Positions 431 through 62,574 of a DNA stretch of 63,562 bases are shown piece after piece (position 1 is the stretch's first letter; each line of letters begins with the position of its first letter). The position numbers and the translations under genes were made by a program. Location: positions 1 to 63,562 of the forward strand of contig JASGTU010000035.1 in NCBI GenBank assembly GCA_030058085.1, written 5' to 3'. Below the pieces are notes generated by a model, which ran no database searches, was not told the DNA's origin, and was given only the letters and a program-made list of their open reading frames with translations. Source of the stretch: Chloroflexota bacterium (GTDB taxonomy: Bacteria; Chloroflexota; Anaerolineae; Caldilineales; Caldilineaceae).

Positions 431-563
431 GCTCCTCGCGCGCGATGTCGTATGCACGCCCGGTCTGCCACTCCCCGGGAGCAGCGGACATGGGTATTTT
501 TGACTAAACCCGGCAATAGTGGATACACTGAAGGCGTTTGCTTTTGCGGCTTCGATTTGTTTT

Positions 564-609
<46 letters not shown>

Positions 610-5362: not shown

Positions 5363-6364
5363 ATGCACAGAGAGATATCCGCCCGTTCGCCGCAACTCGG
5401 CGCGCCGCAACGGTTGGCGGGCGCACACATCGATTTGACGAGGCAGCGGCGGCCGGGCGAGATGGTCGTTCAGGCGTTTCTGTATCTGTGCGCGGCTGTT
5501 TCGATCTTCACGACGATCGGCATTGTCGTGGTGCTGGTGAACACAGCCGTGCATTTCTTCGCACGGCCCGAAGTCACCTTCTTGGACTTTCTTACAGGCA
5601 TCTCCTGGCAGCCGCGCATCAATGCCTTCGGCATCTGGCCCTTGTTGCTGATGACGCTGCTCATCAGTTTCATCGGCATGTTGATCGCCTTGCCGGTGGG
5701 GTTGATGATCGCCATCTATCTGAGCGAGTATGCGCCGCCGAAGGTGCGCAGCGCGCTGAAGCCGATTTTGGAGATCCTAGCCGGCGTGCCGACGGTGGTA
5801 TACGGCTACTTCGCGCTGACGTTTATGACGCCGCTGCTGCGCAGCCTGATCGGCGCGGACGTGGTGCAGATCTACAACGTTGCGTCGGCGGGCTTGGTCG
5901 TGGGCATCCTCATCCTGCCGCTGGTAACGTCCATGAGCGAGGATGCGCTGCGCGCTGTTCCGATGTCCTTGCGCGAGGCGGCCTATGGCGTGGGGGCGAC
6001 CAAACTGGAGACGTCCGTCAGCATCGTGCTGCCGGCTGCGCTGTCAGGGCTGGCGGCAGCGGTGATCGTGGCGATCTCGCGGGCCATTGGCGAGACGATG
6101 GTCGTCGCCATCGCCGCGGGCGCCGGCCCCCGCAACTTCGCAAGTTGGGGAGACGCCATCAACAACATGGCGCTGGTCAATCCGTTTACGGCCGGCGAGA
6201 CCATGACCGGGTATATGGTGCGCATCAGCGGCGGCGACATCAGCTATAACTCGGTGGACTACGACAGCCTTTTCGCCGTCGGCCTGGTACTCTTTGCGAT
6301 GACGCTCGGCCTGAATATCGTCAGCCGTCGCATCGTGCGCCGTTTCCGCGAAGTGTACGAATGA
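5363..6364 (+). CDS. pstC: Phosphate ABC transporter permease PstC
   Basis: Multi-TM permease with an EAA-like loop (EDALRAVPMSLREAAYGVGATKLET). RBS GAGGAG precedes the ATG at 5363. The start is uncertain (the ORF opens at 5297). Confidence 0.85.
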   Translation: MHREISARSPQLGAPQRLAGAHIDLTRQRRPGEMVVQAFLYLCAAVSIFTTIGIVVVLVNTAVHFFARPEVTFLDFLTGISWQPRINAFGIWPLLLMTLLISFIGMLIALPVGLMIAIYLSEYAPPKVRSALKPILEILAGVPTVVYGYFALTFMTPLLRSLIGADVVQIYNVASAGLVVGILILPLVTSMSEDALRAVPMSLREAAYGVGATKLETSVSIVLPAALSGLAAAVIVAISRAIGETMVVAIAAGAGPRNFASWGDAINNMALVNPFTAGETMTGYMVRISGGDISYNSVDYDSLFAVGLVLFAMTLGLNIVSRRIVRRFREVYE

Positions 6365-39917: not shown

Positions 39918-39938
39918 GGACCCGCCGAACTAAAGCTA

Positions 39939-40056
39939 GGCCCTTTCGACTGGCGAAGGCGCGCACCGATCACATTGATTCACATTGATCGGCGCCGCGT
40001 GGAAATGACCACGAGGGAGAGGGGGCCGGCCGATTCTGACAGCCGTTCGCCTGGGC
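39939..40056 (+). promoter_or_regulatory. ZTP (pfl motif) riboswitch
   Basis: P1 is GGCCCUUU (39939-46) pairing with AGGGGGCC (40020-27). J1/2 is CGACUGGCGAA. P2 is CGUGG-AAAUGA-CCACG, followed by AGGGAG. The 3' pseudoknot element is CGCCUGGGC (40048-56). Located upstream of purH, a classic ZTP-regulated gene. Confidence 0.8.
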
Positions 40057-40057
40057 T

Positions 40058-40099
40058 GGGCAGTCGAACCTGAAGACGGTTCGGCTGCCCTTTTTATTT
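40058..40099 (+). terminator. Riboswitch expression-platform terminator
   Basis: 13-bp stem GGGCAGTCGAACC/GGTTCGGCTGCCC, loop TGAAGAC, then TTTTTATTT. Confidence 0.8.
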
Positions 40100-40178: not shown

Positions 40179-41711
40179 ATGTCCGCGTTCCGAGCGCTGC
40201 TTTCTGTATCCGATAAATCCGGTCTGGCGGAATTCGCCCAGAGGCTGCACGAGGCCAGCGGCGAGATGATCGCCTCCGGCGGCACCGCCCGCAAGATCAG
40301 CGACACGGGCTTGCCTGTGCGGGCTGTTGAGGAAGTCACCGGTTTTCCGGAGATCCTAGGCGGGCGCGTCAAGACGCTGCACCCAGCCATCCACGGCGGG
40401 ATTCTGGCGCGGCGAACGTCTTCCCACTTGGACGAGCTGAGCGAGCACGGCATCGGCCAAATTGACCTGGTCGTGGTGAATCTGTACCCGTTCCAGGAAA
40501 CGGTGGCGCAGGCCAATGTCACGCTGGCGACCGCGGTCGAAGAGATCGACATCGGCGGCGTGGCGCTGCTGCGCGCCGCGGCCAAGAACCACGAATCCGT
40601 GACCGTGGTCTGCGATCCGGCGGACTATGATTGGGTGGCGGAGGCTTTTGCGCGCGGCGGAACGAGCGCCACCGAGCGGAAGCAACTGGCGCTCAAGGCG
40701 TTCCGTCATACTGCCGAGTATGACACGGCCATTGCCGCCTACCTCGCCGGGCAGGTGGGTGAGGAGGACAGCGCACCGTTGCCGGAGCATCTGCGCCTGG
40801 ACCTCGTACGCGTGCAGTTGAATCGTTACGGCGAAAACCCGCACCAAGCCGGCGCGCTCTACGCCTATGCCGGGGAGGAGGCGCCCTTTACGGTGCTGCA
40901 CGGCAAGGAAATGAGCTATAACAACTGGCTTGATCTGGACGGAAGCTGGCAGGCCGCACAGGATTTCCGCGAGCCGACCGTGGCCATTATCAAGCACGGC
41001 AACCCATGCGGGCTGGCCTGCGCTGATACGCTGGCGCAGGCTTACGAAAAAGCGTTGGCAAGCGACCCGGACAGCGCTTTCGGCGGCATCATCTCCGTCA
41101 ATCGCCCCCTGGATGTAGCGACCGCTAAGCTCATGGCTGAGTTATTCGCCGAGGTCATCGCGGCGCCGGCCTTTGACGAAGACGCGCTCGCCGTGTTGAC
41201 GAAAAAGAAGAACCTGCGCCTGACAGCCCCGACAGGCGTCAAGCCGCGGCCGTTGAGCCTGCGCAGTGTGAATGGCGGCATCCTCGTCCAGGAACTGGAC
41301 CGCAGCGAGTTGGACATGAACCCGGAAGGATGGCGCATCGTCAGCCGGCGACAGCCAACCGCAGAGCAACTGGCTGACCTGGCCTTTGCCTGGCGCGTGG
41401 CGCGCCACGTCAAGAGCAACGCCATCGTCTTCGTCAAGGACCGGGCTACCGTGGGCGTCGGCGCGGGCCAGATGAGCCGCGTCGACTCTGTCATGCTGGC
41501 GGGCTATAAAGCCGGCGAGCGCGCCCGCGACGCCGTGATGGCGTCCGACGCCTTCTTCCCGTTCGCCGACGGTATCGTAGCCGCGGCCAAGCACGGCATT
41601 ACGGCTGTTGTGCAGCCGGGCGGCTCGGTGCGCGACGAAGAGGTGATCGCCGCTGCGGATGAACTGGGGCTGGCGATGGCCTTTACGGGCGCGCGGCACT
41701 TTCGCCACTAA
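40179..41711 (+). CDS. purH: Bifunctional AICAR transformylase / IMP cyclohydrolase
   Basis: Full-length PurH ([32 protein letters not shown]). Confidence 0.97.
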
Positions 41712-58224: not shown

Positions 58225-58698
58225 ATGTCGAACCATACGCGCACCATCGTCTATTCGGGAGTGTTGGCCGCCGCCTATGTCGTCCTAACATTGGCGCTGG
58301 CGCCGATCTCCTTCTTGCAGATACAGTTCCGAGTTTCCGAGATTCTTAAACCGGCAGTGCTGTGGAACCCGGTTTTCGCCGTCGCCTTTGGCATCGGCAC
58401 GTTCCTTGCCAACCTCACGTCGCCCTTCGGCGCGTGGGATTTCGTGGCGATGGCCCTGGTGGATGCCGTGGCGGCGCTCGTCTGTTGGTGGATGCGCCGG
58501 TGGCCTATTGTTGCTGTAGCCGTCCAGGCCGTCTTGATCAGCGCCGGCGTGGCGATTTTCCCGCTGCATTTCGGCGGCGGGCTGCCGATTGTGCTGTCCT
58601 TTGTGAGCGTGCTGGCATCGCAGTTGATCCTGCTGGTAGGCGGCTATTACTTGGTCTGGCGCAAGGCCGGCCCAATCTTGTTCAGGGGGACGCGATGA
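58225..58698 (+). CDS. queT: QueT-family queuosine-precursor transporter
   Basis: 5-TM protein with the characteristic ISFLQIQFRVSE segment. Confidence 0.7.
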   Translation: MSNHTRTIVYSGVLAAAYVVLTLALAPISFLQIQFRVSEILKPAVLWNPVFAVAFGIGTFLANLTSPFGAWDFVAMALVDAVAALVCWWMRRWPIVAVAVQAVLISAGVAIFPLHFGGGLPIVLSFVSVLASQLILLVGGYYLVWRKAGPILFRGTR

Positions 58699-59648
58699 GG
58701 GGCGGCAACAAGAAGGAGCTGGTCAGTAAGCTGGCCGCGCTGCGTGACGATCCGCCGGCGCAAGCGGCCTATGCATTGACCTTGCTGGACGCCAAGAATG
58801 GGCTGGAAGCGGTGCGCGCCGCGTTGGAGGTGTTGGCGAAACACCCGCAGGATGAGGCGCGGCCCAAGCTGCGCGCGCTGTACGAACACTATGCCGCCCA
58901 CAACGGCACGCGCGACGTGGGCGCGTACACGCGCAGCGCTATTCTCAAGGCGTTGCGTCGGGTTGCGCGCCCGGCGGACACGGACATCCTACTCACCGCC
59001 GTCACGACCTATGAGTTTCCGCCCCCGGCTTTTGCGGAGGAGGCGGGTATGCTGCGCGGCGGGGCGCTGATCGTCCTTAGCGAGGTGGACGAACAAGTGG
59101 CGCGCTACTTCGCTACGCGTTTGCTGGCTGACGGCTACACCGAGCGCATGTCGGGCGAGCCGGCGCTGACCGCGGTGCAGGTTTTGGCGACGCAGGAGGA
59201 ATGGCTGCCGATCTATTTCTGCGCGGTCCAGAGCGCCAATGGCGCACCGGCGGAGGTCGTCGCCGACTGTCTGCGCCAGTTGACCGCGGCGCCTCTGCCT
59301 GTGGTGCAGGAACTCGTCAAGCAGTTTGGCGAAGGCGAGAATTTGCCTGCGCTCGTCGGGCTATTCGACCTGCTTTTGCAGCACCGTTCCGGCCCGCAGG
59401 GGTTGGACTTCTTGGCGAACTTCCTGCAAACGACGCATGACATGGATCTGTATCGCTACCTGTGTATGGTGATGGCGACATCACCGCACGCGAGCGCGCG
59501 TGAAGCGCTTGCCGCGGCGGGTCGCTATGAGTTAGGGCGGGCGAAGCTGGAGGTGCTGCGCGAGGTTTTGGAATTGGCGCCGCCCGATCCGGCATTGGCC
59601 GAACTACGCGATCATATTGCCCCGTCGCACGGCGGAAAGCGGGGCTGA
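58695..59648 (+). CDS. Hypothetical alpha-helical (HEAT/ARM-like) repeat protein
   Basis: The ATG overlaps the queT stop (ATGA). The product is Leu/Ala-rich and helical, with no catalytic motifs. Confidence 0.5.
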   Translation: MRGGNKKELVSKLAALRDDPPAQAAYALTLLDAKNGLEAVRAALEVLAKHPQDEARPKLRALYEHYAAHNGTRDVGAYTRSAILKALRRVARPADTDILLTAVTTYEFPPPAFAEEAGMLRGGALIVLSEVDEQVARYFATRLLADGYTERMSGEPALTAVQVLATQEEWLPIYFCAVQSANGAPAEVVADCLRQLTAAPLPVVQELVKQFGEGENLPALVGLFDLLLQHRSGPQGLDFLANFLQTTHDMDLYRYLCMVMATSPHASAREALAAAGRYELGRAKLEVLREVLELAPPDPALAELRDHIAPSHGGKRG

Positions 59649-59720
59649 CGAGAGTATCGTCAGCGTAGGTCGGGTGCATGAAATAGCGGGATTTGTCGGG
59701 GGAGGGACCTTGATTTTGTC

Positions 59721-59750
59721 TTGCCCGAATGCCCGGCAATGTGGTATAGT
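59721..59750 (+). promoter_or_regulatory. Promoter of the candidate sRNA
   Basis: TTGCCC (59721-26), 18-nt spacer, TGgTATAGT (extended -10; TATAGT at 59745-50). Confidence 0.5.
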
Positions 59751-59756
59751 ATAGGT

Positions 59757-59975
59757 GACTCTGCAGTTTCCGTGATCGGATAGAATGCGGGGCGAGCCAA
59801 CACCTTAAATACGGGAGCACGATCAAGCGGCGTGGAAGTGTTAGCCTTGGCCTTTTGGCCTCGGCAAGACGGAAGCGCCCAATCGGCGCCCACCTGCGTT
59901 AGCAGGTTCGTACCCACTGTCCACACGATCCTGCGGAGTCATGCCCGTCCGTACTATACGGACGGCTTTCTTTTT
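59757..59975 (+). ncRNA. Candidate stand-alone structured sRNA: a ~184-nt core plus an intrinsic terminator. Family unknown; 6S-like is one hypothesis.
   Basis: The 5' GACTCTGCAG (59757-66) pairs with CTGCGGAGTC (59931-40). Further interrupted helices and three GC-rich hairpins lie inside. Terminator CCGTCCGTA-CTA-TACGGACGG plus T-run at 59945-59975. The downstream gene has its own promoter. Confidence 0.55.
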
Positions 59976-59987
59976 ATGTTGAGTCAA

Positions 59988-60016
59988 TTGACGGGTTGCG
60001 CCCTTTGTGGTAGACT
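59988..60016 (+). promoter_or_regulatory. Sigma70-like promoter of the MBL-fold hydrolase gene
   Basis: TTGACG (59988-93), 17-nt spacer, TGgTAGACT (TAGACT at 60011-16). Confidence 0.5.
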
Positions 60017-60055
60017 GGCGTTCAGGTTGTCATAAAGCATTGCAGCGTTGCGGCT

Positions 60056-60976
60056 GTGAGCAGCAGCCGCCGGGCCGGGAAGAGAGAGTTTCGAGTGGCT
60101 ATCATCCGTACGCGCGTCGCCGACGATACGTGGGTTTTTACCAGCGAGCTATATCTAGAGGTAAATGCGGGGCTGGTGGTGACGCCCGAGGGCGGCGTCC
60201 TCATCGACACCCTGCCGTTTCCGTCTGAGACGAGACAGATCATCGCCTTTGCACGGCGAGCTTGCCCGAAGGGCATTCGCTACGTCGTCAACACAGTCTC
60301 CCATGCCGACCATGTGTACGGGTCGTATCTGTTCCCCGATGCGGTGTTGATCGCGCACGAGCAGTGCCGGCAGATGTTGGAGGAGCACGCCTTTGATGCG
60401 CTGGCGCAGGCCAAGGAGCACACGCCGGAACTGCGCGAGGTGCAGATTCGCTTGCCCAAACTGGTCTTTAACGAAGGCATGCTCGTTCGTTTGGGCGGCA
60501 AGACGATCCACATTTTCAATACGCCCGGCCCATCGCCCGAGGTGTGCTCTGTGCATGTGCGCGAGGAAAAGGTGCTGTTCGCCAGCGACCTAATGATGCC
60601 CGTGCCGGTGATTTCGGGGCCGTTCGCCGACATCGACGTCTATAAGCAGTCGTTGAACAACCTGTACGACTACAATTTGGAAAGCATCGTCCAGGGGCAC
60701 GGCGAGATTCTGCTGCGCGGCGAGGTGACGAGCAGCATTCAGGCCAGCATCCAGTATATCGACGCAATTCAGGCGACGGTTGAACAACTGATGGACGAGG
60801 GCGCCACCAAGCATGACCTGGCACAGTTGGACATCGAGCAGTTCGGGCGCAGCCGCATTCCACTGGGCGGCGTCGTGCAGCAGTTCCATACCGCGAACCT
60901 GCTCTATCTTTGGGAGCGGGCGCGACGAGCGCGGCGCGCCCTGCGTCGTGCAGGGATAGCCGGCGTCTCCGCTTGA
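60056..60976 (+). CDS. MBL-fold metallo-hydrolase
   Basis: [12 protein letters not shown] ... VSHADHVYG ... FNTPGPSP ... D ... QGHG pattern. GTG start at 60056, or alternatively 60095. Confidence 0.75.
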
Positions 60977-61788: not shown

Positions 61789-61950
61789 CCCCGCTGCTGT
61801 TCATCCCCTTCATTTCCAGAAGCCACGAGGCGAAGCCCCTCCCTACCGGTTTCGGCGGATCGCGCCGGCGGATGATATACTCGTGGGTAACTACGCCAAC
61901 CGCAACCTAGGAGGATACCTATCGTGGGCGACATTCAGTCAACGGGCGAT

Positions 61951-62574
61951 ATGACCGTAAGCGGTTTTCTCGAAGCGTTAGCCGCCCGATCTTCGACGCC
62001 GGGCGGTGGCGGCGCGGCTGCGGTCAGCGGCAGTATGGCCGCGGCGTTGATCAGCATGGTGATCAACTTCACCGCCGGCAGCAAGAAGTACGCAGACGTG
62101 GAAGAGGAGATGCGGCGGCATCTGGTCGTGAGCGAAGGGCTGCGCGGCGAACTGCTGGCCCTGGCGGACCGCGATGTGGAAGCCTTCAACGCCGTGTCGG
62201 CCTGCTATGGCATGCCCAAAGCAACGGATGAGGAGAAGGCGGCGCGCACCGCTGCACTGCAAGAAGCGCTGAAGGGCGCGACGCGCGTCCCCTACCTGAC
62301 CGCGGAGAAATGCCTGGCTGTGATCGAACTGGCCGAACCGGTGGGCGCCAAGGGCAACGCCAACGTGGTCAGCGACGCCGCCACTGCGCTGCATTTGGCG
62401 ACCGCAGCCCTGCACAGCGCGCTGGTCAACGTCAACATCAACCTGAAGTTCATCAAAGACGAGGCATTCGTGGCGGAGTGGTCAGCCAAGCGTGACGATC
62501 TGCTGGCGCGACTGGCGGATGTGCATGCGCGGGCTGTCGCTGCCTGCGAACAGACTCTAGGGATGTCGCTATGA
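61951..62574 (+). CDS. fchA: Cyclodeaminase/cyclohydrolase-family protein (methenyl-THF cyclohydrolase FchA-like)
   Basis: [28 protein letters not shown], typical of FTCD_C. An alternative GTG start lies at 61924. Confidence 0.8.

Follow-up and report, generated by a model that had tools for sequence, protein, structure and literature searches.

A very probable 6S RNA gene (ssrS) in a bacterium of the Caldilineaceae (Chloroflexota)

Among bacterial RNAs, 6S RNA is well known and abundant; by imitating an open promoter it sequesters RNA polymerase. In proteobacteria, its gene, ssrS, is often linked to the folate gene ygfA. What defines the family is a rod-shaped fold in which a large central bubble lies between a closing stem and an internal stem with interior loops; predictions across the bacteria exceed 1700 6S RNAs (PMC8876501). 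The mechanism has been established in E. coli and B. subtilis, where the rod with its open bubble imitates an open promoter, occupies the active site of the housekeeping holoenzyme and templates a short pRNA; the stable pRNA duplex then unwinds helix P2, refolds 6S RNA and frees the polymerase (PMC8876501). The two model RNAs differ in the 3′ strand of the bubble, which in E. coli is unstructured in the free RNA and forms an induced hairpin of 9 bp, whereas B. subtilis 6S-1 (BsrB) carries a small pre-formed hairpin there (PMC8876501). 6S RNA has previously been reported in Chloroflexi, going by a citation of Wehner et al. (2014) in PMC7726162. A further described system is Ms1, presented in PMC9130861 as an abundant RNA of rod-like shape with a structural relationship to 6S RNA; it binds RNA polymerase in its core form and is reported from Actinobacteria, which mostly lack 6S RNA.

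The locus described here lies in a stretch of 63,562 nt from a Caldilineaceae bacterium, referred to below as the window. An initial annotation, made from the sequence alone, had described positions 59721-59975 as a stand-alone promoter-to-terminator unit encoding a structured RNA of unknown family, with a suspected resemblance to 6S RNA. When the window was compared with Rfam 15 using cmscan, a match to RF00013 (6S/SsrS) was found at 59755-59943, on the + strand only, with a score of 52.1 bits against a gathering score of 46.4. The match is 189 nt long, spans model positions 1-187 of 187 and has an E-value of 1.3e-9 over a 500-nt region. No other Rfam family came near its threshold in a permissive scan of the 500-nt region, where the next best E-value was 0.02. 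Since the match is full-length and exceeds the curated threshold, the RNA is known rather than novel, and the description as an unknown family has to be dropped; the suspected resemblance to 6S RNA, by contrast, is borne out by the Rfam match, by a reciprocal model and by a covarying 6S rod. We therefore consider it very probable that 59721-59975 is the ssrS gene, encoding 6S RNA, of this bacterium, and 6S RNA at this locus is an already known kind of element, not a new RNA family. The gene is detected by the curated model at the standard threshold, which means that routine annotation pipelines would already name it; the locus should carry the label ssrS and be removed from lists of novel-RNA candidates.

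Every computable defining feature of the 6S family is present in the window RNA, and no family-defining feature differs. Like other members of RF00013, it is about 185 nt long, rod-shaped and abundantly transcribed, with its own promoter and terminator. The mature core likely extends from 59757 to 59940, between the ends of the closing stem, giving 184 nt by the closing stem and 189 nt by the Rfam match, both within the range of about 180-200 nt expected for 6S RNA. The margin over the RF00013 gathering score is only about 6 bits, and the 6S assignment was therefore tested independently. The apical stem aligns poorly with the Rfam consensus, with posterior probabilities of 3-6 and several non-canonical pairs, and at the apical loop the window RNA has 14 inserted nucleotides that the model lacks. 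The low score is attributable to the longer, diverged apical stem together with a GC-rich helix P2.

Evidence for the 6S fold came from thermodynamic and comparative analyses. With a minimum free energy (MFE) of −83.2 kcal/mol (z = −4.73), the 184-nt core is more stable than each of 200 dinucleotide shuffles. In the MFE fold, a rod, the 10-bp closing stem is continued by further helices up to a large asymmetric internal loop, beyond which lies a long interrupted apical stem; the centroid fold and the consensus folds from 8 and from 30 sequences show this architecture as well. In a model-fitted alignment of 77 distinct sequences, 47 of 58 pairs show compensatory changes; 91.8% of alignment cells pair, a share that drops to 36-50% once the 3′ partners are shifted by 1-3 columns, and none of 500 shuffles reached any of the observed covariation measures. 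An alignment fitted to the model leans towards the model, so the analysis was repeated with plain MAFFT and RNAalifold. This model-free treatment of 30 sequences recovered the same architecture, with compensatory changes at 23 of 39 pairs. These data establish that the RNA folds into the 6S rod, with closing stem, asymmetric central bubble and apical stem, and they answer the question of homology and covariation raised by the initial annotation with a conserved structure.

The individual elements can be placed on the + strand as follows. The closing stem pairs GACUCUGCAG (59757-59766) with CUGCGGAGUC (59931-59940) in the MFE fold, and the 3′ strand is also supported by the consensus folds and by covariation; this is the pairing of the first 10 nt with nt 175-184 that had been proposed at the outset, and 8 of the 9 pairs of helix 1 are compensatory. 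The helices proposed for nt 16-18/168-170 and 22-27/161-166 likewise recur in the MFE and consensus folds. Helix P2, the “downstream duplex”, joins GGGGCGAGCC (59789-59798) to GGUUCGUACCC (59905-59915), as seen in the MFE and consensus folds and by covariation, with 5 of 10 pairs compensatory (helix 5 of the alignment). The 5′ strand of the central bubble, AACACCUUAAAUAC, comprises 14 nt (59799-59812) that are unpaired in the MFE fold, the centroid and both consensus folds. The apical (internal) stem, with its interior loops, occupies 59813-59891 in the MFE and consensus folds and is capped by the hairpin GCCUUGGCC-UUUU-GGCCUCGGC (59844-59865); helices 6-11 mostly covary, and the apical hairpin pairs in 85-94% of homologue cells. 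The 3′ strand of the bubble (59892-59907; MFE and constrained folds) contains a small hairpin, predicted to have 3 bp (UGC/GCA) in the free RNA, whose closing pair covaries (CG 45, GC 12, UG 10, UA 5, AU 3).

Not all of the local pairings first proposed are conserved. Three GC-rich hairpins had been listed inside the rod: the apical hairpin and CCUGC-GUUA-GCAGG are both conserved, but GCGCC-CAAUC-GGCGC is paired in only 50-51% of cells across homologues, which is the background level, and the same bases take part in the covarying apical stem. Alternative pairings of GAUCG (nt 18-22) with nt 64-68 or 170-174 do exist in the window sequence, but across the family they are paired at 47-53%, again the background level, and were rejected as conserved features. 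In the eight close Caldilineaceae sequences, the pairing with 170-174 is present in 95% of cells; since the only changes there are G-U wobbles, none of them compensatory, this figure is uninformative. The suggestion that GAUCG supports functional alternative folds is therefore not backed by conservation.

The neighbouring uvrC gene places the source bacterium in the Caldilineaceae, and homologues of the window RNA were sought within 10 kb of uvrC at 80 loci from related genomes. Using nhmmer, a homologue was found only in the seven closest genomes, whose uvrC identity to the source bacterium is 75-97%; at the remaining 73 loci, neither nhmmer nor a covariance model found the RNA within 10 kb, so the wider synteny is not kept. 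In all seven relatives the gene order is the same: a hypothetical protein, the RNA, a metallo-β-lactamase (MBL)-fold gene and an RNase H-like gene. The closest relatives of the source bacterium are metagenome-assembled genomes, and the window DNA itself is present in anaerobic-digester, biogas and wastewater metagenomes. The seven syntenic Caldilineaceae homologues score 50.3-55.3 bits against RF00013, all above 46.4, so that the window RNA and its relatives exceed the gathering score by only 4-9 bits. For this lineage, RF00013 seems to operate close to the limit of what it can detect.

Independent support for the family assignment came from a reciprocal test. A covariance model, R1, was built from eight sequences alone, the window RNA and its seven syntenic homologues, and metagenomes were searched with a pattern composed of the blocks that are invariant in these eight sequences (GAGCCAA, CCCACCTG and CAGGTTC). 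R1 matches at least 73 further metagenome RNAs, nearly all of them over the full length of the model, at 22-82 bits. When 20 of these matches were tested against Rfam, 19 were identified as 6S RNA at identical coordinates, with 64-125 bits. Because RNAs retrieved by R1 are scored as strong 6S RNAs by Rfam, the window RNA is homologous to 6S members recognized by the curated model. Invariance of GAGCCAA, CCCACCUG and CAGGUUC in the metagenome set is required by the search pattern and hence is not evidence of conservation; the seven genome homologues, which were chosen without the pattern, also keep all three blocks. The one exception among the 20 (L152, 5001-5182, − strand) is the best of these R1 matches outside the Caldilineaceae clade; it scores 81.8 bits at full length and falls below the RF00013 gathering score. 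Another metagenome contig with a 6S match (L125) also carries a tmRNA gene (RF00023, 137.5 bits) at 5667-6055 on the + strand, 2.6 kb downstream of its 6S RNA and cut by the contig end.

The reciprocal result also bears on the possibility that the locus encodes a 6S-like RNA with a different function, either an Ms1-like binder of core polymerase or a second, non-canonical 6S paralogue that accumulates in a different pattern, as Bacillus 6S-2 does. The modest RF00013 score (52.1 against 46.4) leaves some room for such a reading, as does the structural relationship of Ms1 to 6S RNA stated in PMC9130861. Moreover, some bacteria carry two to four 6S genes (PMC7726162, PMC8876501), and with 63.6 kb of the genome covered by the window, another ssrS gene could lie elsewhere. 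Nevertheless, the match extends over the whole 6S model, including the blocks flanking the bubble, no other Rfam family approaches its threshold in the region, and the RNAs retrieved by R1 include ones to which Rfam assigns 6S scores of 64-125 bits. For Ms1 in particular, PMC9130861 describes the RNA for Actinobacteria, whereas the host here belongs to the Chloroflexota and the window RNA matches the 6S model itself. We regard a different function as very unlikely.

The assignment to 6S RNA is accompanied by a complete transcription unit. A promoter scan placed a −35 hexamer, TTGCCC, at 59721-59726 (+) and an extended −10 element, TGgTATAGT, at 59742-59750 (+), with the TG flagged before the second hexamer and a −35/−10 spacer of 18 nt. 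Three promoter-like sites, this promoter among them, were found in 1 kb by a consensus scan, compared with 0.5 expected from shuffles. All seven syntenic homologues have a TTGC-type −35 element at an equal distance together with an extended −10 element of the form TGnTATAnT. G59757, the predicted transcription start of the 6S RNA, lies 7 nt 3′ of the −10 hexamer, in agreement with the spacing of about 7 nt given in the initial annotation. Directly 3′ of the RNA, a terminator scan identified an intrinsic terminator at 59945-59975 (+), as had been read from the sequence: a 9-bp stem with a 3-nt loop, CCGTCCGTA-CTA-TACGGACGG (59945-59965), followed by CTTTCTTTTT. A hairpin and T-run occur at the equivalent position in all seven homologues, with compensating changes in stem and loop. 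With both signals found by scanning and kept in every homologue, the description of the locus as a stand-alone promoter-to-terminator unit holds.

Expression of this unit is evident from metatranscriptomes. Most 31-mers of the RNA were found in 16 metatranscriptome runs, and in 10 runs from several studies a single contig each was assembled on the RNA within the region 59300-60400, all of them inside 59702-59954. These contigs are 153-237 nt long with depths of 3.5-26, values that are rough because assembled contigs carry no strand and no exact ends and measure abundance poorly. The flanking coding sequence of the upstream gene had zero depth in the 10 runs. DNA runs from the same study as four of the RNA runs cover the stretch at about 4×, apart from short assembly breaks. 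In one RNA run (X35), the downstream gene is represented by a separate contig that begins at 60045, about 29 nt past the −10 element of a second promoter, with a gap to the RNA. RNA-only contigs, even DNA coverage and a separate downstream contig together show that the ssrS unit is transcribed independently, at a level far above that of its neighbours. From its extended −10 promoter, of the σ70/σA type, comes an abundant, discrete transcript, about 184-190 nt long, whose 3′ end lies at the intrinsic terminator or before it. A discrete transcript, the observation for which the initial annotation had called, is therefore seen in 10 runs, albeit as strandless contigs. These runs add wastewater and digester metatranscriptome evidence for the expression of 6S RNA in uncultured Caldilineaceae.

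The contigs also give some indication of the transcript ends. Nine of the 10 lie within 59768-59954 and start at 59768-59796. Most stop at 59933-59938, and one reaches 59954, which suggests a mature 3′ end near 59940 that is trimmed from a terminator-containing precursor. The remaining contig (run X25) begins at 59702, in the promoter region and 55 nt upstream of the predicted start; this could mean that transcription continues from the upstream gene, that a distal second promoter exists or that DNA was carried over.

The same observations bear on whether the RNA could instead act in cis, as a leader or riboswitch-like element controlling the downstream MBL-fold gene (60056-60976). The RNA precedes that gene by 113 nt on the shared strand, and the pairing of the two is kept in all seven syntenic relatives. 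A leader, though, would be co-transcribed with its gene with no terminator and promoter between them, and here the strong terminator at 59945-59975 is followed by a separate promoter (TTGACG-17-TAGACT, 59988-60016). This second promoter had already been noted in the initial annotation and is confirmed by the scan and by the separate RNA contig from 60045. Contigs of the RNA stop at about 59938-59954, leaving a gap before the mRNA contig, and most RNA runs show the RNA contig without any contig of the MBL-fold gene. In addition, the RNA matches a trans-acting family and, for 73 of the 80 related genomes, was not found at distances of up to 10 kb from uvrC. A role as a leader is accordingly extremely improbable, and the earlier preference for a trans-acting or housekeeping RNA is upheld by the terminator, the downstream promoter, the discontinuous contigs and the 6S match.

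The weakest alternative, that an overlapping open reading frame (ORF) such as 59832-60035 (+; 67 aa) encodes a small protein, can be given a negligible probability: mechanical ORFs of 48-169 aa do overlap the RNA, so the initial statement that no ORF is present holds only in the sense that counts here, but no frame is conserved among homologues, the longest open stretches differ in frame and strand from one close relative to another, indels of 1, 2 and 5 nt fall inside the RNA, substitutions compensate base pairs and the 67-aa ORF runs across the terminator into the next promoter. The overlapping ORFs were accordingly rejected as coding sequences.

If the window RNA works as the 6S RNAs of E. 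coli and B. subtilis do, the mechanism can be laid out along its structure. By analogy, it would bind RNA polymerase and serve as a pRNA template. The rod with its open bubble would imitate an open promoter, and the RNA would thereby dampen housekeeping transcription when nutrients are scarce. Upon nutrient resupply, polymerase would copy the 5′ strand of the bubble and the adjacent helix strand into a short pRNA, with the 5′ strand of P2 (59789-59798) predicted, from the mechanism in PMC8876501, to template most of it. Positional analogy would place the pRNA start opposite C59801, the last base of GAGCCAAC, at the 5′ edge of the bubble. The predicted G-initiated pRNA would read 5′-GUUGGCUCGCCCC..., its 5′ beginning being 5′-GUUGGCUC... 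pRNA synthesis on B. subtilis 6S-1 starts at nt 40 with GTP (PMC8876501), and the start predicted here is likewise a G, opposite a C near the 5′ edge of the bubble. Assembled contigs contain no pRNAs, which are 9-14 nt long.

In this scheme, the pRNA:6S duplex would open P2, the 3′ bubble hairpin would grow from 3 to 6 bp, and the 6S:pRNA complex would then leave the polymerase. Constrained folds are consistent with the structural step. When the template nucleotides were forced to be unpaired, both arms of the rod were kept and the 3′ hairpin was extended from 3 to 6 bp, giving ACCUGC-GUUA-GCAGGU, with the extension capturing the GGU freed from P2. As modelled, this extension agrees with the release mechanism described in PMC8876501. 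In E. coli 6S RNA, too, the 3′ strand of P2 extends the 3′ bubble hairpin after P2 opens (PMC8876501), but there the hairpin is absent from the free RNA and reaches 9 bp, whereas here 3 bp are predicted already in the free RNA and 6 bp in the extended form. The pre-formed hairpin predicted for the window RNA is shared with B. subtilis 6S-1 (PMC8876501). A helix corresponding to the bubble collapse of the B. subtilis type, which would join GGUUCGUACCC to the distal part of the 5′ bubble, offers by eye at most three contiguous pairs. The folds thus suggest a shortened version of release of the E. coli type, in an RNA whose small hairpin is already present beforehand, as it is in B. subtilis 6S-1.

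One difference from the better-known 6S RNAs concerns helix P2. In the Caldilineaceae this helix is GC-rich (GGGGCGAGCC/GGUUCGUACCC), whereas in most of the other 6S relatives retrieved it is AU-rich (GUUUUGAGCC/GGUUCAAAAC), amounting to a swap of several pairs, with GGGC/G(U)ACCC in the clade against UUUU/AAAA in the wider set. The AU-rich P2 and pRNA template of the wider relatives read UUUUGAGCC/GGUUCAAAA. These relatives carry UUUUGAGCCAAC at the template, a sequence that presumably resembles the template of B. subtilis 6S-1. Compared with 6S-1, both P2 and the predicted pRNA (GUUGGCUCGCCCC) are far more GC-rich in the Caldilineaceae clade. Given the GC-rich P2, the predicted pRNA:6S duplex would be much more stable in this clade. 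RF00013 operates near its detection limit here and the L152 RNA falls below its gathering score, and so 6S RNA may be under-annotated in the Caldilineales and Anaerolineae. As a tentative proposal, to which we give only a minor chance, the GC-rich P2 and pRNA together with the longer apical stem would make release measurably different in the Caldilineaceae, and 6S RNA would be under-annotated in the Caldilineales and Anaerolineae. If release does differ in this subclade, shorter pRNAs might suffice, for example, or the NTP threshold might be higher. A refined RF00013 seed that includes Caldilineaceae sequences would improve the annotation of 6S RNA in Chloroflexota.

The neighbourhood of ssrS differs from that in E. 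coli: ygfA is not directly downstream, and the neighbour is instead the MBL-fold hydrolase. A gene for a formiminotransferase-cyclodeaminase C-terminal domain protein (FTCD_C, folate-linked) lies at 61924-62574 (+), 2 kb downstream of ssrS, with the MBL-fold gene and the RNase H-like gene between them. The upstream gene (58692-59648; 318 aa) looked HEAT-like by eye, but it has no Pfam match and is called hypothetical.

Several other features were seen in the window. A CRISPR array at 28-430, cut by the start of the window, has at least six identical 37-nt repeats, each matching Rfam CRISPR-DR9 with 46.6 bits, and spacers of about 36-39 nt. No cas genes were found in the 9 kb on the window side of the array; genes for an OmpR-type response regulator, a PAS/HAMP histidine kinase and a PBP_like_2 protein are located there. 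Just past the array, at 547-609 (+), is a tRNA-like fragment with a good T-arm (CTGGGTTCGAGTCCCAG), which scores 21.1 bits against the Rfam tRNA model, below the gathering score of 29, and is followed by a hairpin and T-run at about 614-650. ARAGORN calls no tRNA or tmRNA in the window, this fragment included, which could be a decayed tRNA or a remnant of an integration site. Finally, a ZMP/ZTP riboswitch (RF01750; 47 bits against a gathering score of 39) was detected at 39936-40063 (+). It contains an insertion of about 39 nt that includes an inverted repeat, and it lies 115 nt upstream of purH (40179-41711; AICARFT/IMPCHase), the classical arrangement for this riboswitch.
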